Virus record (IMG/VR): IMGVR_UViG_3300042377_000625
Coordinates: 1 to 64,000 of that record
Source of the DNA: a virus
Direction: 5' to 3' (one strand)
Length of the DNA: 64,000 bases
Of this stretch, positions 41,824-61,532 are shown piece by piece. Made by a program: the position numbers and the translations under genes. Numbering within the stretch: position 1 is the first letter of the stretch; every line of letters begins with the position of its first letter. The notes under the pieces are model-generated. The model was given only the letters and a program-made list of their open reading frames with translations, was not told where the DNA came from and did no database searches.

Positions 41824-41828
41824 TTTAG

Positions 41829-42206: not shown

Positions 42207-42231
42207 TACAATAAATATTAACTATAAAATT

Positions 42232-42981
42232 TTATTTAACCATATTCTCCACTAAAGTATAATACATTGTTTTGTATTTCTTCATTGACCCCCTAATTTC
42301 TTTGGTTGACAAATTAGTCATTTCCCTTAATGAGAGTAGTATAATATTTTTATTAAATTTATTATTATCGTTACCGATAAAAATAGATTCATAATTCTCA
42401 AAAAGGTCATGTAACGCATGACCTAGTTTGATTTCGTTTTCCGATAAACTCTCATTTTCTAGCAAATTATCTAACTCAAGTAAAAAGTTTTTAATTACTT
42501 TTTCTGAATCAATACCTTCTTTTTCTATACTGTAAGAAAAGTTAGGGTTATTTTCTATACTCGTTGAGATATCTTCATATGATATTTTTCGGTTAGTTTC
42601 TTTTTGGTCCTTAATAATTTGACCCATAAGATAATTCTTACAGATTGTACCAAAATATGAATAAGCTTTTTTCTCTCTAGAGGGTTTAAACTTTTCAATT
42701 TTTGTCATTAAGAATGAGTGAGTGTCTACATGTATCTCCGTAAAGTCCATGTCTTTTCTATATAATTTGTATCTTCGAATTATCGAAGATATCATCTTAT
42801 CTAAAGGTTTTTTTAAAAAATCATTATAAATTTTATTTCGTTCTTCGTAGGAGGTTGATTCTAAAAATCTAACAACGGCCTGCTCTTCGGGAACATCAAA
42901 ATAATTTAATTGTGTTGGTTTTCTACCTTTCTTTTTTAACTCAACATTGGTGTTTCCTGTTAAATTAATAATTTCTGTCAT
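42232..42981 (-). CDS. phage sigma factor, T4 gp55-like
   Basis: Sigma region-2-like segment KIEKFKPSREKKAYSYFGTICKNYLMGQIIKDQK. Confidence 0.6.
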   Translation of the reverse strand: MTEIINLTGNTNVELKKKGRKPTQLNYFDVPEEQAVVRFLESTSYEERNKIYNDFLKKPLDKMISSIIRRYKLYRKDMDFTEIHVDTHSFLMTKIEKFKPSREKKAYSYFGTICKNYLMGQIIKDQKETNRKISYEDISTSIENNPNFSYSIEKEGIDSEKVIKNFLLELDNLLENESLSENEIKLGHALHDLFENYESIFIGNDNNKFNKNIILLSLREMTNLSTKEIRGSMKKYKTMYYTLVENMVK

Positions 42982-43793
42982 TAAACTGTTTGGGGTTCAT
43001 ACTTTATGGCCCTGTCGTTAATAAAAAAGTATTCTTTTTTGGCCGAGTCAATCCAAAATCTTACTTCACCTTCCGTTAATCTATCGTCACCATTTTTATA
43101 ATTCCAAAAAATAGACCCGTCTCTCAAGTTAACATGTTTATACCCAATCTTAGGTATTGACATAATCTTAACTGAGTTATGTGTCATTCTTAAGAAAAAT
43201 TCATATCCAAATGTTAATTTGAATGATGGTTTAATTAAACCAAAATCAATAAAAGATGATGTTTTAATAACCATACCTGAAGTTTGAAAATTCTGATATT
43301 CTAATAAAGTTTCATGAGTTAAAATACCCATTTCTGGTGTGAAGTTTGCTGCGAATGTTGCCTCATTTGTAAATCCTGCAAATTTACCTGTTTGGTCTGT
43401 ATCAACAACGATAGGTAAGAATGCGTCAACATCAGGATATGAGTTAGCGTAGACCTCAACGTTTTTAAACCAAATACTTGAATACTCATCGTCAAACTCA
43501 AATAGAGAAACCCATTTAGATTTTGCCGACCTCACACCATGATTTATTTGTGATGCGTAGTTAGCGTCTTTTGTCCACGCAACTTTAACTACATTTAAAG
43601 TACCAAAATCAAATTGATTTAAGTAATCTACAATATGTGTTTCGTTAGTGTGAACTATAATTAATTCATTGATACCAACTTTTTGATTTTTTAATGACTC
43701 AATACATTTTTCAAAATATTCAGTAAATCCGTTTGCTTTTCCTGACTTAATTGGTAAAATAACCGATACGTCAAATTTTTGTGTGTTTTCCAT
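42981..43793 (-). CDS. glycosyltransferase family 2
   Basis: VSVILPI, INHGV...WVSLFEFDDEY and YEFFLR. Confidence 0.8.
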   Translation of the reverse strand: MENTQKFDVSVILPIKSGKANGFTEYFEKCIESLKNQKVGINELIIVHTNETHIVDYLNQFDFGTLNVVKVAWTKDANYASQINHGVRSAKSKWVSLFEFDDEYSSIWFKNVEVYANSYPDVDAFLPIVVDTDQTGKFAGFTNEATFAANFTPEMGILTHETLLEYQNFQTSGMVIKTSSFIDFGLIKPSFKLTFGYEFFLRMTHNSVKIMSIPKIGYKHVNLRDGSIFWNYKNGDDRLTEGEVRFWIDSAKKEYFFINDRAIKYEPQTV

Positions 43794-43794
43794 A

Positions 43795-44859
43795 TTACTC
43801 TTCGATAGTTTCTAGTTTAGTTAATTGTTCTTGAAATGAGGCAAATCTTGTGTTAATATAATCAGTAAATAATTTTACCGAAACCTCATTGAATTCTTTT
43901 TTTGTTGGTAAATTCTCAACTGTTTTAATCATTTCCTCATATAAATTAGGGTTAACATTGTCCTCCAACCAATTTTGTAAGAAGTCAGCAACAAAATCAA
44001 CCATTTGATTTTTATTGTTAATCCATATACCATTATCCTCTGACATCCAAGATGGTAGTAAGTTTGGTGTTAAACCTAAAACAGGTACCCCGCAAGTCAT
44101 TGATTCTAATGGGAATGTACCATAAGCACTTGTTTCATCAATCCATACAGATAAGAAACTTTCTTTTAATGATTTAGAAAATTCTTCTTCGGATAAACCT
44201 CTCATATCTCTAAAAGTGACCCATCTATATTGAGGGAATTTTATGTAGAAAGATTTAATTAAATTAACCGAATCTCTTTGGTCTCTTGAATGGACTGCAA
44301 CAATTGGTTTTGGTGGTAATGTTTGTTTGGTGAATGATTCCGAAATGAATGGTTTTAAAACATCATAAGAAATACCTTTCATTAAGTTTTCTAAAAACTC
44401 CATTTGGGTTTCTGATGTAGTAATACATTTGTAAAACCCTAATTGTGACCAAGATTGACCTGGTTGTAATGTTTCCAATACGTGGTCATAAGCTTGACAT
44501 AACACAATTTTACCACAAGGTAATTTAGCGATTTGACTCATTACAAATCCGTATAATTCAGGGATAACAATAAAATCTTCAGGTGAAACCTCTAAGTTTT
44601 GACCTTCGATAGATTTATGAGGTAATGATGTCATGTATGATTCACCTAACCATCCTGATACTCCTGTATAATCAGGTTTCTCATGTAAAATGATTGGGTT
44701 ATATCCTTCGTTTAATAATGCCATTCCTAAATTATAAATGTAGGCGATTGATGCTTTGGCATTACCCTTAGTATCCTGAACTAAAAGATAGATTCTTGAT
44801 TTCTTATCTTTCATGTTTTGAACTGACTGTTCTAATTTTGAAATTTGTTCTTTATTCAT
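43795..44859 (-). CDS. glycosyltransferase (GT-B, GT4-like)
   Basis: DFIVIPE and YGTFPLESMTCGVPV. Confidence 0.7.
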   Translation of the reverse strand: MNKEQISKLEQSVQNMKDKKSRIYLLVQDTKGNAKASIAYIYNLGMALLNEGYNPIILHEKPDYTGVSGWLGESYMTSLPHKSIEGQNLEVSPEDFIVIPELYGFVMSQIAKLPCGKIVLCQAYDHVLETLQPGQSWSQLGFYKCITTSETQMEFLENLMKGISYDVLKPFISESFTKQTLPPKPIVAVHSRDQRDSVNLIKSFYIKFPQYRWVTFRDMRGLSEEEFSKSLKESFLSVWIDETSAYGTFPLESMTCGVPVLGLTPNLLPSWMSEDNGIWINNKNQMVDFVADFLQNWLEDNVNPNLYEEMIKTVENLPTKKEFNEVSVKLFTDYINTRFASFQEQLTKLETIEE

Positions 44860-44863
44860 TGTA

Positions 44864-45139
44864 TTAGTATTTATTTAGTAATTTTTTATTTAAAAGTGTG
44901 TTAAAGGCTAATTTAAATGGAATTGTAATCTCTGACCCTTTACCTGCTAAAGTTTCGTCGACTTCATCTCCATCATCCATAATAACATCTAACATGAGTT
45001 TAATCGTTTCGTATTTTACGATATTAATTTGTGTACTATCGGTTTCACCCGAAGAAGATGACGGCTCTTGTTTTATTTGGATATATTCGTCAATCTTATC
45101 TAAATCCAAATAGTAATGTTCTCCTAATATTTTTAACAT
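44864..45139 (-). CDS. hypothetical protein
   Basis: 91 aa inside the operon. Confidence 0.7.
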   Translation of the reverse strand: MLKILGEHYYLDLDKIDEYIQIKQEPSSSSGETDSTQINIVKYETIKLMLDVIMDDGDEVDETLAGKGSEITIPFKLAFNTLLNKKLLNKY

Positions 45140-45735
45140 TATAAAATAATTTTTAATTTATCTTCCAATTCTTTGATTGTGTTTATTGTGTATTCCGATT
45201 CAACATTATTGTTATAAATTGTTTCATATTTAATTAATGTTTTATCTGATGGATGGTCTAATAATAGTGCGGGATTTGCGGTAAGTAAAACATCAATTTC
45301 ATCCCACATAGAGTTAATTGTTAAATTACTATAGAATTTTACCTTTTCAAATTCGCATCCAAATTTAGATAAGAAAAATAATGAAGCGGGTTTTGATTTA
45401 TTAATTTCGTCAGAAATAATAATTAAATCATGTTCATTTCTTAATTTTAAGTAGATTTCATTTAAATCGTTAAATGTTGAGTATTCTGCTGATTGAGCAT
45501 GTCCAAAAATTTCCATAGGAAATTCTTCATACAAGAATGAGTATAACTCCTCATCATTTTCAAAACTAAAATGTTTTTTTAAATCAAGACTATCAACAGG
45601 TGTTGTTATCTCGTAATTGAAGGTGTTTTCTTCCTCAATACCGTCAGTCTTATCAATCATGAATTTTTGATAAGTTTGTTCTATTTTGTCTAAAGTGTTT
45701 CGTAGAACACCATTAATTTCTATACCTATTCTCAT
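45139..45735 (-). CDS. HAD 5'-nucleotidase-like protein with degenerate motif I
   Basis: MRIGIEINGVLRN in place of DxDGVL. Confidence 0.6.
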   Translation of the reverse strand: MRIGIEINGVLRNTLDKIEQTYQKFMIDKTDGIEEENTFNYEITTPVDSLDLKKHFSFENDEELYSFLYEEFPMEIFGHAQSAEYSTFNDLNEIYLKLRNEHDLIIISDEINKSKPASLFFLSKFGCEFEKVKFYSNLTINSMWDEIDVLLTANPALLLDHPSDKTLIKYETIYNNNVESEYTINTIKELEDKLKIIL

Positions 45736-45757
45736 ATACGTAAAAAAATATGTAAAA

Positions 45758-45799
45758 AACCCAATAAGTAAATTAAATTGAATTTATACTTATTGGGTT
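45758..45799 (-). terminator. hairpin/terminator after phoH
   Basis: AACCCAATAAGTA/TACTTATTGGGTT 13-bp stem with a T run on the minus strand. Confidence 0.6.
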
Positions 45800-45809
45800 C
45801 GTAATTATT

Positions 45810-46547
45810 TTAGTTTTCGTATCTTTTTAGGATTTTACTAATTAATGGGTTTCTAACCACATCTTCAGGTTTGAATTCGAATGTTCCAATATCATCCATA
45901 TTTTGAAACTTTTGTAGTGCGTCCCACAACCCTGTCTGAGTTTTATCTTTATGTCGGTCAAATTGTTCTAAGTCACCTGAAAGGAAGAATTTAGAATTAA
46001 ACCCAATCCTTGTTAATAATAATTTCATTTGACTTGGTGTTGAGTTCTGAGCCTCCTCGAATAGTAGAATTGAATTGTCGATGTTCATACCTCTCATGTA
46101 GGCCAATGCAAAAACTTCGATAGCTTCAATCTCTTTTAATTTTTCTCTCGCTTCTTTACCAATAATCTTATTTAATAAATAATACGATGGGAAAATGTAA
46201 GGGTCTAATTTCTCTTCAACATTACCAGGGAGTGAACCTAATTTTTCTTCGGCCTCAACTGCGGGTCTTACAATAATGATTTTTTCATAAGGTGTTGTAG
46301 GGTCTGCGAGTAAATCTACCGCCGCTTTCATCGCTATGTAACTTTTACCAACACCTGCAGGTCCTGAACAAATGGTAATTTGACTATTAGTTAAAATGTC
46401 ATAATACTTTCTTTGACTTTCCGAAAGAAACTTCTCTTTAGATTTTTTCTTTATGATTTGTGATATTAATTCTTTTTTTGTTAGTCTTGGTTTGTACTCA
46501 TCAACTGGTTTTGGTGGTACTGTACTTCTTTTTTTTCTTTCTGTCAT
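45810..46547 (-). CDS. phoH: PhoH-family ATPase
   Basis: GPAGVGKS, RPAVE..EKLGSLPG, YMRG, EEAQN, LTRIG, GDLEQ and DVVRNPL. Confidence 0.95.
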   Translation of the reverse strand: MTERKKRSTVPPKPVDEYKPRLTKKELISQIIKKKSKEKFLSESQRKYYDILTNSQITICSGPAGVGKSYIAMKAAVDLLADPTTPYEKIIIVRPAVEAEEKLGSLPGNVEEKLDPYIFPSYYLLNKIIGKEAREKLKEIEAIEVFALAYMRGMNIDNSILLFEEAQNSTPSQMKLLLTRIGFNSKFFLSGDLEQFDRHKDKTQTGLWDALQKFQNMDDIGTFEFKPEDVVRNPLISKILKRYEN

Positions 46548-46606
46548 GTTAAAAACTTAAATGTTAATTGTTTTTTAAAATATACTTTAGTTACTGTTTA
46601 TGTAAA

Positions 46607-47317
46607 TCAATTTCTTTCAAATCCTTCTTCATCATGGTGACAGGTTATTGAGTTAATTAAATAACTTTTTAAGTTATTTTTTAATATATGTTCTCTACAT
46701 CTATTCCATAATTCACCATCAGAGGGTAACCCAACAACCCCTGTTTCATCAAATAAATCACGATATTTAAATGGTATTGTATTAAAATTCATACATACTG
46801 AAGAATGGATTAATGTCGCATAACTTGGTAGAAAATTAATATAATGATTTTCGATACCAATTATTTTTGGCATAGTTTTTTCTGGTGACAAGTAAGTTGA
46901 CTTAGTACAAACCCAATCGGCGTTTGTATTTAATAGACATTTATTAATTACTTCTAAATGATTTGGTTCCCATACGTCGTCATGGTCCAAATGACAAATA
47001 TAATAGTTTCCATCGTCTAATGATTTATCAATTCCGTAGTTAACCGCGTTAACACCACCGTAAGACCAAAGAGCATACCCTTTACCATAACGGTCCCTTT
47101 CTTTAGCAAACGGGAGGTTTTCAAAATAGAGTTTATCTTTATCGTAACTTTTACATATGTTAATAAACTCTTCATTATCTTCGTACTTGTCTCCAATAAC
47201 GTAAACTTTAAAATCTTCATGAGTTTGATTAAAAACACAATCTAACGCTCTTTTTAAGTAAAAAGGTGTTGAGTTATCTGTTCTTTGGTATGTTGATATT
47301 ATAATTGATAGTTTCAT
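46607..47317 (-). CDS. glycosyltransferase family 2
   Basis: LSIIISTYQR, VNYG, HLDHDD and PSDGELW. Confidence 0.85.
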   Translation of the reverse strand: MKLSIIISTYQRTDNSTPFYLKRALDCVFNQTHEDFKVYVIGDKYEDNEEFINICKSYDKDKLYFENLPFAKERDRYGKGYALWSYGGVNAVNYGIDKSLDDGNYYICHLDHDDVWEPNHLEVINKCLLNTNADWVCTKSTYLSPEKTMPKIIGIENHYINFLPSYATLIHSSVCMNFNTIPFKYRDLFDETGVVGLPSDGELWNRCREHILKNNLKSYLINSITCHHDEEGFERN

Positions 47318-47335
47318 GATTATTTAGTTTTTACT

Positions 47336-47704
47336 TTATTTTTTTAAAACTATCGCATTACCATCAATAATTTCTACATCGTCTCTTATTATTTTTGTTT
47401 TTAAAAAATACTTATTATTTTCTTTTTTGTCTAACTCAATCACAATTTCAATCTCATCATTAATGTAACAAGGGTTTTTAAAATTTAAATCTTGTTTTAA
47501 ATATATTGAACCTTCACCAGGGTAATAGGTTGCAATTATCTTAGAAAAAAAGGAAGATAATAACATTCCATGTGCAATTCTTTTTCCAAATATACTATTT
47601 TTGGAATACTCATCATCTAAGTGGATTGGATTTTTATCTCCAGACAGTTCGGAAAAATCCCTCACCATTTTATCTGTTATAGTTATTTTTTCAGAAACTC
47701 GCAT
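47336..47704 (-). CDS. MaoC-family (R)-specific enoyl-CoA hydratase
   Basis: FSELSGDKNPIHLD...FGKRIAHGML...PGEG..YLKQDLNF. Confidence 0.9.
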   Translation of the reverse strand: MRVSEKITITDKMVRDFSELSGDKNPIHLDDEYSKNSIFGKRIAHGMLLSSFFSKIIATYYPGEGSIYLKQDLNFKNPCYINDEIEIVIELDKKENNKYFLKTKIIRDDVEIIDGNAIVLKK

Positions 47705-48240
47705 TCTAAACTGTATAAATTATTTTCTCTATTTTTTATGACCTTAGATGGTATACCAACAACAATTTTAGACTTTTCAACATCTTTAGTCACTAATGAT
47801 AACGAACCAACAGAACTATGGTCATCAATATTAACATTTGGTAATATCACACTCCCCGCACCAACAATAACGTGTTTACCTAACCTAACATCACCTGATA
47901 TAACATTAGTGTATTCTTTACTTACTGTTGGATTTGTTAAAAAATTACCACTATAATCATCAGTTGAACTGTATATTGATACTCTTGATGATAATCCTGA
48001 AAAATCGTCAAGTGTTATTTTACCGTTCCCGATTAAACTACAAAAAACGGCAATGTGAACATAGTTACCTATTTTAATTCCACCTTCACCAGCGCTAATC
48101 ACACAAAAATCATCAATTCTAACATTGTTACCTATCGATATGTTCCGTGGATTGTAAATTGAACATTTGTTTGAAATCAAAACATTTTCCCCAATTGATT
48201 TAAATCCAATTAATTTTAATTCTTCTTTAGTATAAAACAT
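47683..48240 (-). CDS. left-handed beta-helix sugar N-acyltransferase (AntD/VioB-like)
   Basis: MFYTKEELKLIGFKSIGENVLIS...IGNNVRIDDFC...DDYSG...KHVIVGAGSVILPNV closely follows the AntD pattern (recalled). Confidence 0.8.
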   Translation of the reverse strand: MFYTKEELKLIGFKSIGENVLISNKCSIYNPRNISIGNNVRIDDFCVISAGEGGIKIGNYVHIAVFCSLIGNGKITLDDFSGLSSRVSIYSSTDDYSGNFLTNPTVSKEYTNVISGDVRLGKHVIVGAGSVILPNVNIDDHSSVGSLSLVTKDVEKSKIVVGIPSKVIKNRENNLYSLECEFLKK

Positions 48241-48247
48241 AGTTATT

Positions 48248-48319
48248 TTAATTAATTTTTATAGACAGTAAAGAAAGATTATTACTCACTTTCCTTCCAA
48301 ACTCACCTGTACCTATTCT
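48248..48319 (-). pseudogene. possible remnant of a PglD/NeuD-like N-terminus
   Basis: Start-less frame RIGTGEFGRKVSNN...* resembles IGAGGFGREV. Confidence 0.25.
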
Positions 48320-48327
48320 CGATTTTT

Positions 48328-48945
48328 TTATTTTATTTTTTTAATTATTTTACGGTAATTTGAATGTAATTCGGTAATATAGTCAGAAAAGGTTAACATA
48401 AAATAGTCTACAGATTCTTTCGGTCTTAAGTTTGTTGGCCGACTCATTTCCCATAAGTAATCGTCAAAAATAATAATACCATTATCATTTAATAATTCCC
48501 ATGACATAATCGCATCCATCATAACATATGGTGCGGTATGATTACCGTCAATAAAAATTATATCGTACATTTTTCCTTCAGTAATTAAAAATGGTAAGAC
48601 TTTATTTGAAAGACCTTCCCTAACGATTACCTTATTGGCGTTTGTACTTTCATTAATATTATGTAAAAACATTTCTTTAGTTTTTCTTTCACTTAATAAC
48701 CATTCAGCGTTATCTTTAAAGTAAGAATTTAAACTATTATTATCTTGACTAAAATTAGTCCATGGGTCGACACAAGTTATCGTTGATTTGTCGTTTTGTA
48801 AAATATTATCTAAAAACCAAATAGTGGATTTACCCTCAAAACAACCTATCTCAAGGATATGAATTTCTTTTGTTGGGTCTAAATTATTTAATACGGATAA
48901 CCCATCGTTGGTAAACCATTCTTCTGTAAATTTGTAATTTTTCAT
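48328..48945 (-). CDS. class I SAM-dependent methyltransferase (Methyltransf_24-like)
   Basis: LEIGCFEGKS, CVDPW, DIIFIDGNH and GIIIFDDY. Confidence 0.88.
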   Translation of the reverse strand: MKNYKFTEEWFTNDGLSVLNNLDPTKEIHILEIGCFEGKSTIWFLDNILQNDKSTITCVDPWTNFSQDNNSLNSYFKDNAEWLLSERKTKEMFLHNINESTNANKVIVREGLSNKVLPFLITEGKMYDIIFIDGNHTAPYVMMDAIMSWELLNDNGIIIFDDYLWEMSRPTNLRPKESVDYFMLTFSDYITELHSNYRKIIKKIK

Positions 48946-49571
48946 TGTTGATATATTTTAAAATTTGATAAATCTGGATAAGGTAATTCTAAATCCTCAT
49001 TATGTTTTGGAGTCCCATCCATATTATAGAACTGATTCATTAATAAATAACCTCTCGCGGCTAATTCGGGCATCATATAAAAATTCCAACCTAACATATC
49101 AAAATGGTCGTCATGGTATGAACATTCTCTTCTCCCACTATATCTTGCTCGTTTGAACCAAAGATACGCATCATAGTCGTCTGTTAAAATTGCACCACCC
49201 TTAGACAGTTTAAAGTGTTTGTATGGTCCTGTGAATGAGATACACATATGAGTGTTAGGTATGTACATATTACTAGTAAACCTAAGTGCCGAATCCCAAA
49301 CTTTTGTTGGGGACAACTGGTACGCACCTTTTATAGTTTTACCCTCAACAGGGGTAAATTTAACCTTACCTCCCGCATGAATAATCTCACATGGTACCGA
49401 TGGGTATGTTCTGGATGGAATCTCAATTTCCATACCTTTAATATTCTCATACATTAGTGATAAGAATAATGCGTTACTTTGATTATCCACTGTTACAACG
49501 TACTTCGCACCTGTATATTCGGATAGTTTAGTTTCAAAATTTTCTGTTATTTGGTAAATTCCTTGTGCCAT
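48942..49571 (-). CDS. short DegT/DnrJ/EryC1/StrS sugar aminotransferase
   Basis: FETKLSEYTGAKY, WDSA, SFTGPYKH (PLP lysine), GGAILTDD and GWNFYM; only 209 aa. Confidence 0.8.
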   Translation of the reverse strand: MAQGIYQITENFETKLSEYTGAKYVVTVDNQSNALFLSLMYENIKGMEIEIPSRTYPSVPCEIIHAGGKVKFTPVEGKTIKGAYQLSPTKVWDSALRFTSNMYIPNTHMCISFTGPYKHFKLSKGGAILTDDYDAYLWFKRARYSGRRECSYHDDHFDMLGWNFYMMPELAARGYLLMNQFYNMDGTPKHNEDLELPYPDLSNFKIYQQ

Positions 49572-51070
49572 TAGTTTAATTTAAATATAAAAGGTTTAAT
49601 ATTGTTTTCGTTTTTAATCATAAAAGGATAAAAAGTGTTAATGTAATCTTGACGGTAATTATCATCATTATCTCCTCTGGTTTGACTCTCATAGTGATAA
49701 GCAACTAAATTACCGTCATAATAATTATTTAGACCTAATGAAAGACATTTGATGTTTAATTCCGCATCCTCTAAACAAGTTTGATAATTTTCGTTAAAAT
49801 AACCACACTTTTCAAATATGGTTTTATTAATCATTAATAGAGCTGCAGTAGACCCCAATACTTTTTTTATTGATGGTGTATAAGTATAATATCCTTTTAA
49901 TCCCGAATGTGTTAATTGTATTATATTGTTATGAATATAAATTACCATACCATCATGTTGTACGGTATTATCTAAATAATGTAGACGACAACCGACAGTA
50001 CCAACTTTTGGAGTTGTTTTGAATATTTTTAACATACCATAAATAACGTTGTTTAATAATTTAATATCATTATTACAAAATAACAAATATTCGTGAGTGT
50101 TATTTAGATGGTTTTTAACCACATCATTATTAATTTTTGCAAAATTATAATAATCATATTCAATTAATTTAATATTATTATAATCAGAAATAAATGATTT
50201 AAGTTTTTCTTTATTTTCATCAGTTGACCCAGTGTCGGCGATAAAAATGTCAAATAAATTAGGGTTACAATGTTCGTAAAAAGATAGAATACATTCACTT
50301 ATTAATTCGAACTTATCTTTTGTTGGTATAATTACCGAAACTTTACCAATATTTTTAGTTGGTTTTTCGTTTATTTTAGGAACGTAAATACTGTTTGGTT
50401 TTAAGTCTAATGGCAATTTAGACGAGAACTTCTCTAAAAATTTAGTTTTACTTTCAAAAAATTCCTCATTTGGTCGTCCAACTGATTGGTGGGTAATATC
50501 AAAAGAAAATGTAACCCCAATTTTTACCCCGTCTAAATAATTACTTAAACAGAATGGGTGGTCATAAAAATGAAACTTACCAATAGTCTCATTAAAATTA
50601 TGTTTTATTTTTGTTTTATCGAATGAAATGAATAAACCATCAATAGTCACTACTGGTGTTAATTCATCTAATTTTGCGGAATACTTATTAACCCATTTTT
50701 TACGACCCTCAGGTTGGTGATATACATGACCAACCATTGTTTGAGCCATTCGTTCCCAATAGACTCCTGATTCAGGAAAATATGTTGACCCTGCCTTCCC
50801 AATGATTCCGTAATCAGGGTTATTTTCGAAATCTTTAAATAATTTCTTACCCCAATTATTTTCTAATTTGATGTCGTTATGACAACAAACCACAATATCA
50901 TAAATTGATTGTGATATACCTTTGTTATATACCTCAGCCAAACTGTATTGATTATTGTTCTGAAACTCTAAAATCTGAACATGTTTTAATCCAACAGTTT
51001 GTAACAAATGTTGTTTAAATTTGTTATTATAAGTTTCGTCTTTATGGGTTGAATAAATTATTGTTATCAT
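49571..51070 (-). CDS. two-domain GT2 glycosyltransferase
   Basis: Two GT-A domains (CCHNDI...IDGLF...FHFYD; VSVIIPTKD...FCNNDI...EDAEL...HYESQTRG). Confidence 0.85.
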   Translation of the reverse strand: MITIIYSTHKDETYNNKFKQHLLQTVGLKHVQILEFQNNNQYSLAEVYNKGISQSIYDIVVCCHNDIKLENNWGKKLFKDFENNPDYGIIGKAGSTYFPESGVYWERMAQTMVGHVYHQPEGRKKWVNKYSAKLDELTPVVTIDGLFISFDKTKIKHNFNETIGKFHFYDHPFCLSNYLDGVKIGVTFSFDITHQSVGRPNEEFFESKTKFLEKFSSKLPLDLKPNSIYVPKINEKPTKNIGKVSVIIPTKDKFELISECILSFYEHCNPNLFDIFIADTGSTDENKEKLKSFISDYNNIKLIEYDYYNFAKINNDVVKNHLNNTHEYLLFCNNDIKLLNNVIYGMLKIFKTTPKVGTVGCRLHYLDNTVQHDGMVIYIHNNIIQLTHSGLKGYYTYTPSIKKVLGSTAALLMINKTIFEKCGYFNENYQTCLEDAELNIKCLSLGLNNYYDGNLVAYHYESQTRGDNDDNYRQDYINTFYPFMIKNENNIKPFIFKLN

Positions 51071-51071
51071 A

Positions 51072-51674
51072 TTAAATTCCTGTTGAACCGAATCCGTTAC
51101 TATTACGGTCTTTTTTTGTTACTTCATTTCTCTCATCCAAATAAACCCAACCACCATTAACTACGGGACATAAAACTGCTTGAGCAACTTTCATACCTTT
51201 AGTAATTGTAAAAGGTTCTTTATTTGTATTAAATATAATTACTTTTACTTCACCTGTATATCCATTATCTACCGTTCCTGGAGAGTTTAAACACATTAAA
51301 CCTTGATTAATGGCTAACCCACTTTTAGACCTAACTTGAATTTCATATCCATCTTTAATGTCAAATGATAATCCTGTCGGAACTAAACCTCTACCAAGTC
51401 CCTCAATTGTAATATCTTCAACTGAGTATAAATCAAATCCAGAATCACTTGGGTAGTTATAACTTGGGGTTACGGCATCAAGATGTAGTTTATTAAAACC
51501 TAATTCTAACTGAGCTTTATAGTTTTTCATATCAACTTCTAATTGTTTAACATCAACACCAAACTCCTCAAGGATTTGATTATAATCAATATCATTGTTT
51601 TCTGACATTGATAGTATTGATTTTAGCTCTTCGGCTTTTTTCTTTAAAAAATCTAAATCTATTTCTTCTGACAT
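51072..51674 (-). CDS. dut: dUTPase
   Basis: SGFDL, RSKSGLA, GTVDNGYTGE, AQAV and RNSNGFGSTG. Confidence 0.95.
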   Translation of the reverse strand: MSEEIDLDFLKKKAEELKSILSMSENNDIDYNQILEEFGVDVKQLEVDMKNYKAQLELGFNKLHLDAVTPSYNYPSDSGFDLYSVEDITIEGLGRGLVPTGLSFDIKDGYEIQVRSKSGLAINQGLMCLNSPGTVDNGYTGEVKVIIFNTNKEPFTITKGMKVAQAVLCPVVNGGWVYLDERNEVTKKDRNSNGFGSTGI

Positions 51675-52393
51675 TATTTAAGTTCTTTTAATTTTTTTAT
51701 CACCTCAATTAATACGTTAACGTCTCGTTCACAGTATTCTGAGATTTCTTTTAATTTACCATGGTTCCAATATGAATTATGTACTTTATCTCCTGTGATT
51801 TCACCTTCTTTTGGTGATGGAATCTCCATTGAGGTACACATTAAATCTAATGAACCAATCGCCGTATAAGCACCATATTGCCAAATTTCTTTAGTGTCGA
51901 TGGCTTTAATTTCCCATGGTTTTGTATCGTATGACGGTAAAATTGATGGTGGAAGTAATCCATTAATAATCATTCTTTTAGCCATCATTGGAATATCAAA
52001 ATTCTTTAGATTATGCCCACACAGAAAGAAATCCAATCTTCCACAACGGTCCAATAATTTCTGACAATCACGTAATAATTGTTCCTCATCATCACCAGAA
52101 AACGTTTGTTTTTTAACTTCACCATTATCCATAACAAAGGCAACACTAACACATACAATCTTTGCAAATTCGGGTACCAGCGCGGTTCTTGTTGAGAATA
52201 TAATATTTTTTCTTTCATCTTCGTTTTCCCCTTTAATTGCGTCTTCAGGGAATCGTTTTAAAAACCAATCGAAATACTTATCGAATTGATGTGCAATTTC
52301 AGGACGTTTTTCAACACAAGTATCGAAGTCTTTTTCAATCCCAACTGTTTCTATATCAAGAAACAAAATTTTAGTAATAGGTATTTTAATCAT
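51674..52393 (-). CDS. DnaQ/PolB-like 3'-5' exonuclease
   Basis: FLDIET, GHNLKNFDIP and EYCERDV (DEDD). Confidence 0.85.
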   Translation of the reverse strand: MIKIPITKILFLDIETVGIEKDFDTCVEKRPEIAHQFDKYFDWFLKRFPEDAIKGENEDERKNIIFSTRTALVPEFAKIVCVSVAFVMDNGEVKKQTFSGDDEEQLLRDCQKLLDRCGRLDFFLCGHNLKNFDIPMMAKRMIINGLLPPSILPSYDTKPWEIKAIDTKEIWQYGAYTAIGSLDLMCTSMEIPSPKEGEITGDKVHNSYWNHGKLKEISEYCERDVNVLIEVIKKLKELK

Positions 52394-52844
52394 TTGTCTC
52401 TAAATTTTTTAAAATTTCAGGGTTTTGTTTCAATGTTTGTATTGTGATTAAATCTTTGATTTTAGTTGTTGACCAATTGTGAGACCTTGTGGTGTAAACT
52501 ACCTCAATTGGTAGATGGTCTCCAGTAAACCTCTTACCAATATAATCGTCACCTAAAATTCTAACATCAGGTTTATAAAACTCAATAAGTTTTATTAAAT
52601 CCTCTTCAGTTTGATATGTCACAACTTCATCAACATACTTTATTGACATTAAAGTTTTATATCTTTCATATAATGGAACGACTGGTTTATACTTTGTAAA
52701 TCTTGTCTCAGACGGGTCTCTTTGTAAAAAGACCATAAAGTAATCACACTTTTCTTTTGCCGCTTCAAAAGTGTAAATATAACCTGGGTGTAATAAATCA
52801 AAATTACCTGCGGTGAACCCAACTTTACCTTTTTTATTATACAT
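52386..52844 (-). CDS. cytidylyltransferase (TagD/RfaE-like)
   Basis: GNFDLLHPGY, ERY..L.SIKYVDEV, GDDY and STTKIK. Confidence 0.85.
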   Translation of the reverse strand: MYNKKGKVGFTAGNFDLLHPGYIYTFEAAKEKCDYFMVFLQRDPSETRFTKYKPVVPLYERYKTLMSIKYVDEVVTYQTEEDLIKLIEFYKPDVRILGDDYIGKRFTGDHLPIEVVYTTRSHNWSTTKIKDLITIQTLKQNPEILKNLETND

Positions 52845-52845
52845 A

Positions 52846-54066
52846 TTATTTAATTAATGATTTATAAAATTCTGCTCTATTTTTTGTTACGGTATTTAAA
52901 TCGTATTTGTCTTTAACCGTTTCATATAATCTTTCTCCCATATCTGTAATCAAATTAGGGTTTTGAACTAACTTTTTGATGTGTTTCGACCAATCACTAT
53001 GATTTCTTTGCTCACCGACTAATAAAGCATTACCATCAACAAAGTTACCATTCTTCATACAATGTTTCAAGTCGATTGTATATGGACCTATTTCAGACGC
53101 GATTAACGCTTTCTTATAAAATCCTGCTTCAATAACTTTTAACTGAGATTTCATTCTATTAAAGACGTGATTTTTGATTGGAGCTAATGAAATATCAAAT
53201 TTAGAATAATTCATTGCATATGTGGTAACAGGTTTTGTCCAAACTCTAAGATAAGGTAATTCTTTATTTGAAACATAATCTTGTTCTTTATATTCCATTA
53301 AGAATTTTTTATAATCCTCATCAACTAAATTATAATTGTTTGTAAAAATCTCTTCATATTTTGCCCACACAGTTTCGTGAGGTAAAATGTCTCTACGTTT
53401 TTGTTCCCCCGTTTGTGGATTAATCTCAGTAACAGTACCACGAGTATCAAACCCACAAATAACATATTGAATTTTGTCATTAATGTCCTTACCATTTCTT
53501 TGAGTGAACCCTTGTAGTAACATTAAATCATGTAAGTGAGATGAGCCACCTAACCACCCAACTCTAATTCTATCTGATTCAACGGTTGGTTGATTGAATT
53601 GAGGTTCTTTTGGGTTAATTGCATTGGGGAATACAACAACATTTTTATTAAACCTTCTAATTTCATTTGCAAAAATATCTGTTGTTGTTGTAACATAATC
53701 AGCTTCTTTTAAGTTTGCAACAATTTTTTCGTTAATTTTTTGTTGAACAATTATTTGATGAATAGGATGTTCTTTTGTTGGTAACCAATAATCATCAATG
53801 TCAACAATAACGATAATTCCTAGTGATTTTAACTTTCTAATGATTAGTGGAGTATTGTCGTAATTACTACCAATATTTCTATGTACGTGAACGATTTGAT
53901 ATTTTTTCCAATAATTTGGGTCATTGATTTTTGGTTCGTAGTCAATGTCTAAATGGAAGTCGTCAGGATATAAATTTTGTAAATGTACGTGAGGGTCGAT
54001 AGAACGAAATTTCCCAACACCACTTTTATCACTTGGTAGTACTAAAACATTAATTTTTTCTTTCAT
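52846..54066 (-). CDS. glycosyltransferase (GT-B)
   Basis: DIDDYW, RVGWLGGSSH..DL and DISLAPI...FNRMKSQLKVIEAG. Confidence 0.8.
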   Translation of the reverse strand: MKEKINVLVLPSDKSGVGKFRSIDPHVHLQNLYPDDFHLDIDYEPKINDPNYWKKYQIVHVHRNIGSNYDNTPLIIRKLKSLGIIVIVDIDDYWLPTKEHPIHQIIVQQKINEKIVANLKEADYVTTTTDIFANEIRRFNKNVVVFPNAINPKEPQFNQPTVESDRIRVGWLGGSSHLHDLMLLQGFTQRNGKDINDKIQYVICGFDTRGTVTEINPQTGEQKRRDILPHETVWAKYEEIFTNNYNLVDEDYKKFLMEYKEQDYVSNKELPYLRVWTKPVTTYAMNYSKFDISLAPIKNHVFNRMKSQLKVIEAGFYKKALIASEIGPYTIDLKHCMKNGNFVDGNALLVGEQRNHSDWSKHIKKLVQNPNLITDMGERLYETVKDKYDLNTVTKNRAEFYKSLIK

Positions 54067-54763: not shown

Positions 54764-54770
54764 ATCTTAA

Positions 54771-55498: not shown

Positions 55499-55499
55499 A

Positions 55500-59800: not shown

Positions 59801-59855
59801 TGTAACAGTTGTTGATATCAATTGTGATTGTGACCCAAATAATTTAAGTATATGA
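56850..59855 (+). CDS. large virion protein with LamG/ConA-like segments, Cys-rich inserts and a Thr/Pro mucin-like linker
   Basis: GRLKIYVNG and [15 protein letters not shown]; (TTTTTSNL)n and (PT)n tracts. Confidence 0.7.
59003..59244 (+). repeat. in-frame Thr-rich and Pro-Thr tandem repeats
   Basis: ACAACA...TCAAATTTA units, then CCAACA units. Confidence 0.85.
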
Positions 59856-60349
59856 ATGAAACAATTGTAATATCTAGTATCAATTATAATGGTCAAATTG
59901 CTAATGTTGTTTTTAAACCTGACAACAGTATGGACGCTATTAATTTAGGTGATGTATTATTACCTTTTTTATTTGAACCTAACTTATTAACTCCCCCAAG
60001 AGAGGTTTATGGTGTTTATACTATATTAGTTATTAATTCTGACTGCCCTAACTTCTTAACTGTTGTTAGACCAATTCCATCACCAACACCTACACCAACA
60101 CCTACAAGTACCCCAACTCCTATTCCTACAAGTACGCCAACACCAACACCAACAGACACTCCTTGCCCCCCACAACCAACTAAAACGCCTAAACCAACCA
60201 AAACACCAACTCCAACACTACACCCAACACCAACCCCTACTTTTGACCCTTGCGCCACCCCAACACCAACCCCAAAACCAACTCGTGCTCCAAGACCAAC
60301 ACCAACATTAACTCGCACCCCTTGTGTAACACCAACAATTGGTTTATAA
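59852..60349 (+). CDS. virion protein with (PT)n tail
   Basis: C-terminal half is PT-rich. Confidence 0.7.
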
Positions 60350-60406
60350 TATTAAGTTTAAGAATAAAATAAAAATAAAAGATATTTATTAAATAAAAAA
60401 AAAACT

Positions 60407-61441
60407 ATGTCAACATCAAGACCATTTGCATATAATCCAACATTATCACTAATCAATGGGGCTATCCGAGTATTTAATAGTACATTAACTATTGGGGTTG
60501 ACGACCAAGACTACACATTACAACCAGGTGGAATTCAATGGTGGAACGGACCCGATGAAGACCTTGGGTATGTAATCGCTCACTCAGTTCCAACAGGAAC
60601 ACAACCAAATCCGTTAGGGATTTCTGCGTATGTAGGATTTTGGAGGTCGTTGTCGTTAAATGAAATTTCATTTGTTGAAAAGGCGGGATTTGTTAGTAGT
60701 AAAACTTACACAACAGGTGACGAGGCGTATATTTGGATGAACGGTTTTGGACATTGGTCTTCTTGGGAAGTAAATCCAGGTTCGTTAATATTTCCAAATA
60801 GTTCTAATACGGCAAGGATTATTCCTACTCATATTGGTACAGTTAATGAATTCTTTACAATTGAATTTTGGTATTTTGGAAATCCAGTATCAACAGGTAG
60901 TAACCAATACATATTTAGTCAAAGTGCTTCATTTGGTGGTGGTGATTTAAATTTATATATTGACCCATCAGATAGTTGTCTTCACGGATTATCCACTGGT
61001 AATGCGATATCTCTACCATTGTCAACAAATGTTTGGCAACACATTGCAATTACATGTGACAATGGTCAAGTTAAAGTCTATTTTGATGGTAATGACAAAA
61101 CTGCCGTTGGAATACCTAACACTCTGATTAGTAACACTATTGGTTTAATTTATTTTGGCTCTTTACTATCGAGTAGTAATTTTTTAGATGCGAAACTTAC
61201 TGATATAAGGATATGTAGAAATATTGTATATACAAGTGGGTTTACAACCCCCAAAAGTTCATTATTACCAATACAAGGTGCAAATCCTTACGGAGGTGCG
61301 TCCACTAATCAAATTAATGATGGTGACTGTGTTCTTTTAATTGACTCATTAAATTCACCCTCTTTTCAACAAGACCTTAGTAATTTAGGTAGTACCGTTA
61401 TTGTTGGGGCAATAACACGTAGTTCTGACACTCCTTATTAA
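60407..61441 (+). CDS. LamG/concanavalin-like domain virion protein
   Basis: FTIEFW...WQHIAIT...KVYFDG...LTDIRI...YTSGFT. Confidence 0.75.
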   Translation: MSTSRPFAYNPTLSLINGAIRVFNSTLTIGVDDQDYTLQPGGIQWWNGPDEDLGYVIAHSVPTGTQPNPLGISAYVGFWRSLSLNEISFVEKAGFVSSKTYTTGDEAYIWMNGFGHWSSWEVNPGSLIFPNSSNTARIIPTHIGTVNEFFTIEFWYFGNPVSTGSNQYIFSQSASFGGGDLNLYIDPSDSCLHGLSTGNAISLPLSTNVWQHIAITCDNGQVKVYFDGNDKTAVGIPNTLISNTIGLIYFGSLLSSSNFLDAKLTDIRICRNIVYTSGFTTPKSSLLPIQGANPYGGASTNQINDGDCVLLIDSLNSPSFQQDLSNLGSTVIVGAITRSSDTPY

Positions 61442-61532
61442 TAACTATAAAAACATAAATAAAGTCCTCCAACCCTTGGGGGATTTTTTGTTTTAAAAAA
61501 GAGTTAAAGTAAATACTAACTATTTATTCAAT

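Follow-up and report, generated by a model that had tools for sequence, protein, structure and literature searches.

Overall, we believe, on a balance that tips somewhat in its favour, that the gene island at positions 42981-54066 makes up one half, the sugar-tailoring one, of a protein-glycosylation system that the phage itself encodes, that works wholly in the cytoplasm and that acts on the phage's fibres. Judged by their sequences, its enzymes probably build a rare sugar of the anthrax-spore type, with which the phage probably coats its own Ser/Thr-rich fibres. Gene identities, conserved residues, a cassette swap, synteny and co-occurrence were all observed directly. At the same time, support for the original prediction of fibre glycosylation is partial, and we infer the acceptor and the identity of the sugar. 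The window analysed covers the first 64 kb of a contig of 92,343 bp from a large uncultured phage, and genes were called with Pfam and PHROGs profile searches, supplemented by PDB sequence matches.

Every listed gene of the island lies on the minus strand. Pfam and PHROGs bear out the five glycosyltransferase (GT) genes and one nucleotidyltransferase originally described, together with the tight run at 46607-51070 of double GT2, aminotransferase, methyltransferase, acyltransferase, hydratase and GT2. The first gene encodes a 406-aa GT (52846..54066; phrog_7162 glycosyltransferase, E 7e-46), and a terminator/promoter scan placed a terminator-like hairpin (54152-54133) and a sigma-70-like site (54115-54087) just upstream of it. 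It is followed by a 152-aa cytidylyltransferase-like nucleotidyltransferase (52386..52844; Pfam CTP_transf_like, 3e-13) that matches TagD (PDB 1COZ, 8e-16) and, both below cut-off, the NCBIfam models rfaE_dom_II (2e-19) and TagD (3.4e-19); it could be a TagD-like glycerol-3-phosphate cytidylyltransferase or a heptose-1-phosphate adenylyltransferase resembling RfaE domain II. The remaining GTs are a 499-aa double GT2 (49571..51070; Glyco_tranf_2_5, 1.3e-23, and Glycos_transf_2, 6.2e-16) with neither a transmembrane segment nor a PDB sequence match, a 354-aa GT-B-like protein (43795..44859; PDB 8XSG, the glucoside glucosyltransferase AmGGT, E 2e-6), a 270-aa GT2 (42981..43793; Pfam GT2, 5.1e-7) and the 236-aa GT2 that closes the run (46607..47317; Glycos_transf_2, 3.4e-11). 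The glycan genes are thus present, but the island is interrupted by a PhoH-like ATPase (45810..46547; Pfam PhoH, 2.1e-61) and by dUTPase-like (51072-51674) and PolB-exo-like 3'-5' exonuclease (51674-52393) genes, both called by Pfam. The latter two are kept in the same frame among relatives, and probably serve nucleotide metabolism rather than the glycan pathway.

As to the aminotransferase, a DegT-family gene is indeed present (48942..49571), but its PLP-protein product, similar to sugar aminotransferases, has only 209 aa and matches the 360-position Pfam DegT profile at positions 26-98 only; we call it mini-DegT. It has 7,786 homologues (787 representatives at 50% identity), the best 120 of which are 82-94% identical and mostly 209-213 aa long, and it recurs at 533 IMG/VR loci at 80% identity or more while its neighbours diverge; it is the conserved anchor of the island. 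Compared with known sugar aminotransferases, it is missing both a beta-alpha unit of ~50 residues and the entire C-terminal domain, and its activity is therefore uncertain. One might suppose that the pathway is incomplete or decayed, that mini-DegT is a non-catalytic remnant or plays some other part, such as that of a conserved recombination anchor or of a binding subunit, and that no anthrose-like sugar is made. Such decay would accommodate deletions this large relative to every characterised DegT enzyme, the missing dehydratase gene, a degree of conservation across diverging surroundings that is unusual for a sugar-tailoring gene, and a cassette breakpoint exactly at the mini-DegT stop codon. 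We nonetheless consider it improbable, because across 61 diverse members S112 and the PLP lysine, K118, are invariant and D93 is nearly so, and the AlphaFold2 model is compact and confident (pLDDT 97). Its best Foldseek matches are sugar aminotransferases (TM-score 0.63-0.70), which suggests that mini-DegT folds as the large domain of these enzymes. It is also consistently paired with amine-modifying enzymes: the immediate downstream neighbour belongs to a single similarity cluster in 54 of 77 IMG/VR loci, a cluster that includes AntD-like matches and from which the member sampled is a PglD-type N-acyltransferase, and the other neighbours scanned comprise two methyltransferases, one WbqC-like protein, one ATP-grasp protein and three without a Pfam match. 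The gene after mini-DegT is thus usually N-acyl-modifying, and fusions occur as well, of mini-DegT with GNAT and of GT4 and FkbM with mini-DegT. Finally, in five of the seven relatives with a completeness of 93% or more, no other DegT gene is present. We therefore retain the reading of a working pathway, in which this truncated-looking enzyme is predicted to convert an NDP-4-keto-6-deoxyhexose into an NDP-4-amino-4,6-dideoxyhexose.

The acyltransferase (47683..48240) is well identified. This AntD-type left-handed beta-helix (LbH, hexapeptide) N-acyltransferase aligns end to end (residues 2-184, ~52% identity by hand count from the alignment) with the crystallised AntD sequences 3VBI-3VBP (E 3e-52), of which 3vbn is AntD of Bacillus cereus (PMC6031040), and it falls below cut-off against the NCBIfam NeuD/PglB/VioB family (9e-17). 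The AntD/VioB-like call is strongly borne out, while "convergence" on spore, flagellin and giant-virus coats proves the wrong word for AntD because the phage protein is homologous to it. Its gene overlaps by 22 nt that of the hydratase (47336..47704; Pfam MaoC_dehydratas, 2.3e-20), which matches PDB 5CPG (4e-21) and 1IQ6 (1.4e-18) and keeps the Asp/His catalytic motif SGDKNPIH, confirming the expected MaoC protein as a PhaJ-type (R)-specific enoyl-CoA hydratase. The hydratase is predicted to supply a 3-hydroxyacyl-CoA donor, and the AntD-like enzyme to use it to N-acylate the 4-amino sugar. In bacteria, AntD-like genes have a full-length DegT close by in 63 of 80 loci; RmlB is found near them in 26 of these loci and RmlA in 18. 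The methyltransferase (48328..48945; Methyltransf_24, 4.8e-21, and the O-methyltransferase family Methyltransf_3, 3.4e-7) had no match in a PDB sequence search, and its positional counterpart in the related locus L006 also matches RMNT_CmcI and TylF; it is a predicted sugar O-methyltransferase, so that the SAM-dependent methyltransferase and GTs called for by the proposed pathway are in place. The 236-aa GT2 accompanies AntD-like genes in L008-L010, and is a candidate for an AntB-like role in transferring the finished N-acyl amino sugar.

The source of the keto-sugar probably lies elsewhere. Neither the 92-kb contig nor G003, a complete relative with the same module, has a gene for a 4,6-dehydratase, and RmlA, RmlB and a PglF-type dehydratase are absent from these 92 kb, which CheckV rates as only 31% complete. 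The host therefore probably provides the keto-sugar, as one of the two sources originally proposed, the other being a gene elsewhere in the phage genome. In Ferruginibacter (L095) an overlapping AntD-then-hydratase pair occurs in the same order at 51-58% identity, and the phage pair looks horizontally acquired from Bacteroidota. Because this closest pair adjoins PglC/PglF-like genes, the nucleotide sugar could be of the UDP-QuiNAc4N type instead of the dTDP-viosamine type.

The mucin-like Thr/Pro and Gly-X-Y Ser/Thr genes of the original prediction are real, but they lie outside the island and on the opposite strand, and are therefore its divergent neighbours rather than transcriptionally downstream of it. 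The minus-strand genes truly downstream (below 42232) resemble tail/baseplate genes by eye; a PHROGs search returned no family match for them. On the plus strand, translation reveals a 1,001-aa mucin-like protein (56850..59855) with poly-Thr and (Pro-Thr)n tracts, in which S/T/P reaches 93% in a 30-residue window, followed by a 165-aa Pro-Thr-rich protein (59852-60349, from the S/T/P scan) and, within 59852..61835, a 344-aa ConA-like lectin-domain protein (Laminin_G_3, 1.8e-12) and a 100-aa protein. Beyond these, a 2,550-aa collagen-like protein (Pfam Collagen; 61883 to contig position 69535, past the window end at 64000) is proline-free, consists to 56% of Ser+Thr and contains an unbroken run of 783 Gly-X-Y triplets, and is followed on the contig by a second, 3,117-aa Gly-X-Y protein (69686-79039) and a second GT island (79071-89782) that contains an Aah/TibC heptosyltransferase domain (TIGR04414, 285 bits where the cut-off is 200). 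The fibre block has six genes that carry S/T/P tracts or Gly-X-Y repeats, the sixth being the partial 91677. Each of the five whose upstream context was examined (56850, 59852, 61883, 69686 and 89875) either has TATTTAT ahead of it or directly follows a gene that does; the motif, a putative late promoter, stands 11 nt before the mucin-like start codon, 18 nt before that of the 2,550-aa gene and before 60407 and 61533, and genes of the head module and tail region have it upstream as well. Of the genes in the islands, only the boundary gene 55963-56799 is preceded by it; none stands upstream of the 406-aa GT. Given this, and the proximity of PhoH, dUTPase and exonuclease genes, expression timing does not tie the island to the fibres.

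Among relatives, gene order links the island to the mucin-like protein. In each of the 54 whose flanking sequence was long enough, a homologue of it sits next to the 406-aa GT, exonuclease and dUTPase genes, and in 52 of them it also adjoins the double GT2; S/T/P tracts are kept in 39 of 59 homologues, and the mucin-like protein is a candidate syntenic acceptor. Synteny of this kind may be simple inheritance within one lineage. Collagen-like genes are not associated with AntD-like ones, occurring in 4 of 7 AntD-positive and 7 of 17 AntD-negative records; they track TibC-like genes, the kind present in island 2 (Fisher p = 4e-5; p = 1e-3 by a conservative count). Nor is a link to the collagen-like fibre general, since G003 and immuto carry the mini-DegT/N-acyltransferase module without collagen-like or TibC-like genes; the mucin-like protein is therefore an equally good acceptor. 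These same patterns would suit a glycan placed on the capsid, tail sheath, baseplate or another non-fibre protein, with the Ser/Thr fibres modified by island-2 enzymes only or left bare, and glycosylated capsid and tail-tube subunits are known from mycobacteriophages (Freeman et al. 2023, as cited in PMC12619734). We regard this as rather unlikely, however: among the 81 contig ORFs the only S/T/P-rich proteins are those of the fibre block between and beside the two GT islands, the mucin-like gene keeps its place by the island, and a TIGR04414 gene lies co-directionally within 5.4 kb of mini-DegT in 13 of 80 loci, nine of which, on nine other phage contigs, have an AntD-like gene in the same cluster.

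Fibre glycosylation must also be weighed against remodelling of the host envelope, in which sugars would be added to, or altered on, lipid-linked O-antigen or capsule intermediates during infection and exported by host flippase and ligase, and which could block superinfection or keep progeny from sticking to debris. Bacterial AntD-like genes lie in O-antigen/capsule-type clusters that also encode Wzx flippases or ABC transporters, and the phage pair looks taken from such a Bacteroidota cluster; the island genes lack TATTTAT, and soluble GT2 and GT4 enzymes normally work on Und-PP-linked acceptors, soluble GTs being normal in Und-P-linked pathways too. Yet neither the contig nor four complete relatives contain a transmembrane segment, an initiating phosphoglycosyltransferase or a Wzx flippase, so that the suggested targeting of host LPS finds no support in phage-encoded export machinery. 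In addition, at least 12 GT-like genes occupy the two islands that flank the fibres, one with a domain of a direct protein-glycosylating family, and no integrase or lysogeny genes were noticed among those examined, in contrast to classical serotype-converting phages. We consider the envelope an unlikely target.

Phage DNA, hypermodified against restriction, is a very improbable one. The dUTPase-like, exonuclease and PhoH genes within the island would fit it, as would an arms race between restriction systems and a variable cassette, and phage GTs that attach diverse glycans to DNA provide precedent (Pyle et al. 2024, as cited in PMC12619734). Against it, no thymidylate-synthase-family hydroxymethylase was found in the contig or in the complete relatives G001 and G003, both of which carry the mini-DegT/AntD-like pair. 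To our knowledge, N-acylated, O-methylated amino-dideoxyhexoses are not known from DNA. Moreover, the cultured Flavobacterium phage immuto has a homologous island, and HPLC-UV-MS of its DNA reported fdPreQ1 alongside canonical dA, dC and dT; none of the nucleosides reported bears a sugar (bioRxiv 10.1101/2023.04.13.536721).

Returning to the fibres, we infer every catalytic step of the general pathway from the genes. The host would supply an NDP-4-keto-6-deoxyhexose, most likely dTDP-4-keto-6-deoxyglucose and possibly UDP-4-keto-6-deoxy-GlcNAc, which mini-DegT would aminate at C4. The hydratase would make a 3-hydroxyacyl-CoA from crotonyl- or methylcrotonyl-CoA, the AntD-type enzyme would add the 3-hydroxybutyryl or 3-hydroxy-3-methylbutyryl group to the amine, and the methyltransferase would then O-methylate the sugar. 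The 236-aa GT2 would move the product onto a glycan built by the other soluble GTs on fibre Ser/Thr residues, the candidates being the mucin-like protein, the Pro-Thr proteins and the giant collagen-like proteins; on some of these, the glycan may be primed by the TibC-like heptosyltransferase that island 2 encodes. The terminal part of this pathway appears to be interchangeable. The related locus L005 matches the window at 88-90% DNA identity over 48938-57954 and 39220-46478, but blastn finds no match there for 46479-48937, the segment that runs from the methyltransferase, its first gene, through AntD and the hydratase to the 236-aa GT2, its last; a different acyltransferase/methyltransferase/GT-like set takes its place. 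One breakpoint coincides with the mini-DegT stop codon and the right-hand one (46478) falls inside the 5' end of PhoH. The block would thus be a swappable cassette by which the terminal sugar is specified, and as such it resembles a serotype determinant, here one for the virion surface.

We believe that the glycosyltransferase (GT)-rich run of genes at 42981-54066 is best read, on what is available, as a virus-encoded system for glycosylation of its own particle. The contig, an IMG/VR viral sequence, is 92,343 bp long, with the window covering its first 64 kb, and is 31% complete according to CheckV. Its GC content is about 32%, and genes for the large terminase, the portal protein and the major head protein are present in the window. 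On the same contig, the 680-aa product of 12846-14888 (minus strand) matches the PHROGs 'ATP-dependent protease' family phrog_4871 (E 1.6e-237). Few entries of the cultured-phage collection match at the DNA level: Flavobacterium phages, Bacteroides phages and two uncultured phages. Given these matches, and since two island genes have their nearest bacterial homologues in Ferruginibacter (family Chitinophagaceae), a Bacteroidota host is likely.

Pfam, PHROGs and NCBIfam searches bear out the gene content and order first proposed for this island. Reading along the minus strand, it encodes a GT of 406 aa (52846-54066), a cytidylyltransferase-like protein (52386-52844), an exonuclease (51674-52393), a dUTPase-like protein (51072-51674), a double GT2 (49571-51070), a DegT-like protein (48942-49571), a methyltransferase (48328-48945), a left-handed beta-helix (LbH) acyltransferase (47683-48240), a MaoC hydratase (47336-47704), a GT2 (46607-47317), PhoH (45810-46547), two proteins to which no product is assigned (44864-45735), a GT-B-like protein (43795-44859; PDB 8XSG, E 2e-6) and a further GT2 (42981-43793). 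The hydratase, GT, acyltransferase and methyltransferase genes are contiguous at 46607-48945, with short gaps and overlaps of 22 nt (hydratase on acyltransferase) and 4 nt. PDB sequence searches gave no match for the methyltransferase, the double GT2 or the 406-aa GT. The 198-aa protein at 45139-45735 (minus) begins MRIGIEINGVL, which by eye resembles the first HAD/5'-nucleotidase motif with both aspartates changed (to E and N); searches of Pfam, PHROGs and NCBIfam assign it to no family. A 249-aa protein (42232-42981, minus), encoded immediately downstream of the island, looks by eye like a small phage sigma-like factor and has no PHROGs match. At the other side lies a small WYL-domain protein (54771-55205, minus) with a C-terminal (Thr-Glu-Pro)4 repeat, which adjoins the GT island in 62 of 63 relatives at a median identity of ~73% and could be a regulator of the island.

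We regard the assignment of the acyltransferase as AntD-type as firm, by full-length homology to the structurally characterised enzyme. In phmmer its residues 2-184 align to positions 21-201 of PDB 3VBI-3VBP (E 3e-52), with ~52% identity as counted by hand from the alignment, and 3vbn is AntD, the N-acyltransferase of D-anthrose biosynthesis in B. cereus (PMC6031040, there credited to Kubiak and Holden 2012). The original prediction spoke of convergence with the spore coat system; for AntD this does not hold, as a full-length match of this strength is homology at the level of the family. The protein also matches the Hexapep family of left-handed beta-helix repeats in Pfam (4e-11) and, under the cut-off, the NeuD/PglB/VioB family in NCBIfam (9e-17). 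For its neighbour, the MaoC protein, the matches are 5CPG and 1IQ6, both (R)-specific enoyl-CoA hydratases, and the Asp/His motif SGDKNPIH is present. The methyltransferase falls within Pfam Methyltransf_24 and an O-methyltransferase family, and its positional counterpart in L006, a related IMG/VR locus, additionally matches the rhamnosyl-O-methyltransferase/CmcI and TylF families.

The neighbourhoods of 80 bacterial AntD-like genes (50-64% identity) bear on the substrate. Full-length DegT genes are found near 63 of the 80, Wzx-type flippases near about 21, RmlB-like dehydratases near 26, RmlA near 18 and PglF-like dehydratases near only 6. As RmlB and RmlA neighbours outnumber PglF-like ones (26 versus 6 loci for the dehydratases), the bacterial context favours dTDP-4-amino-4,6-dideoxyglucose (viosamine), the sugar on which AntD itself acts, with 3-hydroxy-3-methylbutyryl-CoA as acyl donor. 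Among the only bacterial loci with a close MaoC partner are those of Ferruginibacter, in the order PglC-like, AntD-like, MaoC (overlapping), DegT, PglF-like, and an arrangement of this type would make an N-acyl QuiNAc4N instead. Since no PF16363 match, and hence no NDP-hexose 4,6-dehydratase, was found in the 92-kb contig (31% complete) or in the complete relative G003, where an AntD-like gene directly follows the DegT-like gene, the host probably supplies the keto-sugar. Another complete relative of 348 kb (G002, the record of locus L049) has four SDR-type sugar dehydratase/epimerase-like genes at 22598-24366, 35229-36203 and 134215-135192, one of them of the GDP-mannose 4,6-dehydratase family (E 1e-117), so some members of the lineage have fuller nucleotide-sugar pathways. 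The product of the present pathway would be an O-methylated N-(3-hydroxyacyl)-4-amino-4,6-dideoxyhexose, for which we infer the carrier nucleotide, the acyl chain and the methylation site. The anthrose/viosamine biochemistry first put forward is thus largely supported by the AntD match, the hydratase, the methyltransferase and the GTs; the aminotransferase is a predicted miniature form only, and the carrier may be dTDP or UDP.

That miniature form, which we call mini-DegT, is 209 aa long and matches Pfam DegT only at profile positions 26-98; the matches of the whole family together span only positions 26-98 and ~162-246. It lacks the two-domain architecture of ~360-400 aa typical of DegT/DnrJ/EryC1/StrS sugar aminotransferases. 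We reject the reading as a split gene or pseudogene because thousands of proteins normally have this 209-aa length, the predicted fold is confident and the catalytic residues are kept. There are 7,786 homologues, the best 120 of which are 82-94% identical and mostly 209-213 aa; the gene is encoded in 533 IMG/VR loci, and a search of 1.84 billion representatives yields 787 clusters at 50% identity, mostly of 195-240 aa. Across 61 diverse aligned members, the SxxxxK Schiff-base motif never varies at S112 or K118, and at least 90% keep D93, within a DSA motif that matches the EDaA motif of DegT enzymes. In the latter the aspartate is in contact with the ring nitrogen of PLP. The mini-DegT lysine falls in the same alignment position as that of the PDB enzymes. 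AlphaFold2 models the protein at pLDDT 97, and the top Foldseek matches of the model are GDP-perosamine synthase, PseC, WbpE, WecE and similar enzymes (query TM-score 0.63-0.70, target-normalised ~0.40). Residue conservation, model and structural matches together point to a family that has kept the PLP core and is missing one beta-alpha unit of ~50 residues and the C-terminal domain.

The genomic context argues that the gene is functional. The gene directly downstream of mini-DegT belongs to one similarity cluster in 54 of 77 loci; this cluster holds the AntD-like hits, and its single scanned member is a PglD-type N-acyltransferase. Other downstream neighbours that were scanned comprise two methyltransferases, one WbqC-like protein, one ATP-grasp protein and three without a Pfam match. 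Mini-DegT is also found fused to GNAT and, in a protein from another source (P0121), to GT4 and FkbM, and it is the sole DegT-family gene in five of the seven relatives that are at least 93% complete. If this is confirmed, no smaller scaffold would be known among sugar aminotransferases, a point that concerns enzymology and glycoengineering alike.

The gene may have a second role, as a recombination anchor for cassette exchange. Among the best 80 of the 533 IMG/VR loci (L005-L084) its protein is 80-98% identical, whereas adjoining genes are 25-70% identical or absent, and within the island it alone matches the cultured Flavobacterium phage immuto strongly at the DNA level (71%). The closest relative, L005, makes the exchange visible: blastn gives 87.7% DNA identity over 48938-57954 and 89.7% over 39220-46478, and between them 46479-48937, with the methyltransferase, AntD, hydratase and GT2 genes, finds no L005 match. 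The breakpoints are the mini-DegT stop codon and the 5' end of PhoH. In the replacement set a PglD-type (PglD_N) acetyltransferase, identified by Pfam, takes the place of AntD; judged from the translations, the rest appears to consist of a 281-aa protein of no kinship, a methyltransferase-like protein of another kind and a small GT2-like one. Further close relatives have AntD and GT2 without the hydratase, or AntD with the hydratase. The genes predicted to govern N-acylation, O-methylation and transfer are exchanged as one unit within a conserved frame, much like O-antigen serotype determinants of bacteria.

Where would such a sugar go? Phage DNA is one candidate, and we rate it unlikely. Immuto carries a homologous island, with a mini-DegT, an LbH acyltransferase and GTs, and HPLC-UV-MS of its digested DNA gave canonical dA, dC and dT, with fdPreQ1 replacing dG (bioRxiv 10.1101/2023.04.13.536721); no sugar-bearing nucleoside was reported, and there is no match to the thymidylate-synthase family (PF00303), the source of the hydroxymethyl pyrimidines in T-even-type DNA glycosylation, in the contig or in the complete relatives G001 and G003. 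A polysaccharide exported to the cell surface by phage-encoded machinery is another, and parts for it were not found: neither an initiating phosphoglycosyltransferase (PF02397) nor a Wzx flippase (PF01943) has a match in the contig and four complete relatives, and the island proteins have no transmembrane segments except one hydrophobic stretch in the exonuclease.

Further candidates are the proteins encoded next to the island. The original prediction noted Ser/Thr/Pro-rich neighbours, and these do exist, on the plus strand and beyond the 54066 boundary: a mucin-like 1,001-aa protein with poly-Thr and (Pro-Thr)n tracts (56850-59855), a 165-aa Pro-Thr protein (59852-60349) and a collagen-like Gly-X-Y protein (from 61883). 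On the full contig the product of this first Gly-X-Y gene reaches 2,550 aa, is 56% Ser+Thr and has 783 triplets in an unbroken row; the gene for a second, of 3,117 aa, comes next, followed by a second GT island (79071-89782) and, beyond that, by further Pro-Thr and Gly-X-Y genes. Among the 81 ORFs of the contig, only five, all in this fibre block, are S/T/P-rich, and a partial Gly-X-Y gene at the contig end has 33% Ser+Thr; each of these is either flanked by the two GT islands or adjacent to one of them.

The motif TATTTAT occurs 5-35 nt upstream of the start codon in genes of the head module, in two genes of a tail-like region lying downstream of the island and in those at 56850, 60407, 61533, 61883, 89875 and 90509; at 69686 the distance is ~55 nt. 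Of the genes within the islands it stands before one alone, the boundary gene at 55963-56799, whose direction diverges from that of the mucin-like gene. Over the whole contig, 22 of 60 occurrences of (A)TATTTAT(A) precede an ORF, for example at 24799, 27408, 31489, 33509, 36623 (minus), 56850 and 61883. The motif is probably a late promoter of this phage lineage and, being common to both, makes the fibre genes appear co-regulated with the head genes. The island at 42981-54066 starts after a terminator-like hairpin and a sigma-70-like site; a sigma-70 promoter scan returned 108 sites versus 89 expected from shuffles and is therefore uninformative. From the shared TATTTAT and the fibre-like composition we infer that the Ser/Thr-rich proteins are virion components, so that the phage GTs adjoin genes for predicted virion proteins with Ser/Thr-rich tracts.

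This neighbourhood is conserved. A homologue of the 1,001-aa protein (54-94% identical) adjoins the genes for the 406-aa GT, the exonuclease and the dUTPase in all 54 IMG/VR loci with enough flank, in 52 of them with the double GT2 as well, and strong S/T/P tracts are kept in 39 of 59 homologues. An ESM Atlas search with its N-terminal domain returned only unnamed viral clusters. The literature searched on phage glycosylation contained no experimental glycan or proteomic data for any of these phages, of which the present one is uncultured. Fibres as the target of the glycan are a plausible, if unproven, reading and the best available, towards which we lean by a modest measure.

Which fibre would be decorated is a separate matter, on which the second island (1071-11782 in locus L004) is informative. 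It encodes a GT4-GT9 fusion, an 895-aa GT4, two FkbM methyltransferases, a GT2-like protein and a GT9; a DUF6165 protein also lies among these GTs. The C-terminal half of the fusion matches TIGR04414, the Aah/TibC protein O-heptosyltransferases, with 285 bits versus a curated cut-off of 200. Among the best 80 of the 533 mini-DegT loci, TibC-like homologues are co-directional with mini-DegT and at most 5.4 kb from it in 13, nine of which have an AntD-like gene within ~0.9 kb downstream of mini-DegT, so that what are two islands in this phage form a single cluster in others. The nucleotidyltransferase at 52386-52844 scores equally as TagD-like (glycerol-3-phosphate cytidylyltransferase) and as RfaE-domain-II-like (heptose-1-phosphate adenylyltransferase), under both curated cut-offs, and is found in 2 of the same 80 loci and in 16 of 63 mucin-like-gene loci. 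If it is a heptose-1-phosphate adenylyltransferase, it would feed the TibC-like enzyme. A GmhA-type SIS domain of the ADP-heptose pathway was found only in G004, another relative.

Across 24 mini-DegT records, collagen-like genes occur in 9 of 9 TibC-positive versus 2 of 15 TibC-negative records (Fisher p 4e-5, or 1e-3 after merging a duplicate pair and discounting a weak case), p values that overstate independence because the records are phylogenetically related. AntD-like and collagen-like genes show no association in these records (4 of 7 AntD-positive versus 7 of 17 AntD-negative records). A count of collagen-like or mucin-like ORFs within 10 kb of mini-DegT (9 of 80 loci) is uninformative, the fibres of this phage being themselves more than 7 kb away. 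Given the missing association, and the amino-sugar module of G003 and immuto, which comes without a collagen-like or TibC-like gene, we conclude that the anthrose-like sugar has no fixed link with the collagen-like fibre. As a candidate for the acceptor, the mucin-like protein is no worse than the collagen-like ones, and the acceptor may differ between phages.

A broader model can be drawn from these observations, one that we put forward tentatively and consider possible more than probable. Large phages of probable Bacteroidota hosts would carry a modular 'virion serotype' locus, in which an uncharacterised miniature class of PLP aminotransferase (~209 aa, 787 clusters at 50% identity) supplies exchangeable cassettes for N-acylation, O-methylation and transfer, recombined at mini-DegT and PhoH, so that near-identical phages show different terminal sugars on their mucin-like and collagen-like fibres, anthrose-like in the present case. 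If true, viruses would have their own version of the O-antigen diversification seen in bacteria. A difference in this cassette between genomes otherwise so alike suggests diversifying selection on the virion glycan, which bears on host recognition, escape from defence and grazers, and particle stability in lakes. If it is confirmed, tailed phages would, like giant viruses, encode the steps that tailor rare amino sugars of bacterial type for the virion, a far more elaborate glycosylation than the simple form found in mycobacteriophages. As immuto is cultured and has a homologous island, the central question is open to direct test.

The closest known counterpart is the anthrose system (antABCD) of B. 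anthracis and B. cereus and its acceptor BclA. Both have, in one run, an AntD homologue, a putative 3-hydroxyacyl-CoA-supplying hydratase, an aminotransferase-like gene and a dedicated GT, and as with BclA there are Ser/Thr-rich collagen-like proteins, here encoded nearby. The hydratase is dispensable in phage relatives, in agreement with the reported loss of only half the anthrose when antA is knocked out (PMC10050317). Unlike that system, the phage one belongs to no spore, relies on a 209-aa miniature aminotransferase, has a methyltransferase inside the cassette and offers proline-free acceptor triplets, Gly-Ser/Thr-Ser. The phage hydratase belongs to the MaoC/PhaJ type; in the two Bacillaceae loci sampled (Bacillus and Priestia), the AntD-like gene had no MaoC homologue beside it.

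The flagellin of P. syringae carries a modified viosamine, an N-acylated, 2-O-methylated 4-amino-4,6-dideoxyglucose. Mimivirus encodes its own viosamine pathway and decorates its fibrils with the sugar (PMC9614988), as 2-O-methyl-N-acetyl-viosamine. What these two share with the phage, as predicted here, is an N-acylated, O-methylated 4-amino-4,6-dideoxyhexose on a surface protein structure; mimivirus differs in having its own 4,6-dehydratase, a full-length aminotransferase, UDP sugars and acetyl groups. The bacillosamine pathway (PglF dehydratase, PglE aminotransferase, PglD acetyltransferase, PglC transferase) has the same succession of aminotransferase and LbH N-acyltransferase, and is echoed in the PglD_N-type acetyltransferase of L005 and in the Pgl-like genes around the Ferruginibacter AntD-like gene, whereas the phage has neither PglF nor PglC. 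With TibC/Aah (TIGR04414) the phage shares the island-2 domain, over the cut-off, which clusters with mini-DegT and AntD-like genes in relatives and co-occurs with collagen-like genes. In contrast to those enzymes, the phage version is fused to a GT4 domain, its would-be acceptors are collagen-like repeats and not beta-helical adhesins, and a supply of ADP-heptose is not evident beyond the ambiguous nucleotidyltransferase.

Finally, mycobacteriophage GTs encoded near structural genes reportedly modify the phage's own virion proteins in the cytoplasm (Freeman et al. 2023), and the same relation between GTs, structural genes and virion proteins is proposed here. Mycobacteriophages use one to a few GTs, host nucleotide sugars and the C-termini of capsid or tail-tube proteins as acceptors. 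The present system, as predicted from its genes, would instead deploy at least 12 GT-like genes in two islands, together with dedicated amino-sugar tailoring enzymes, methyltransferases and a swappable cassette, with giant repeat fibres as its would-be acceptors.
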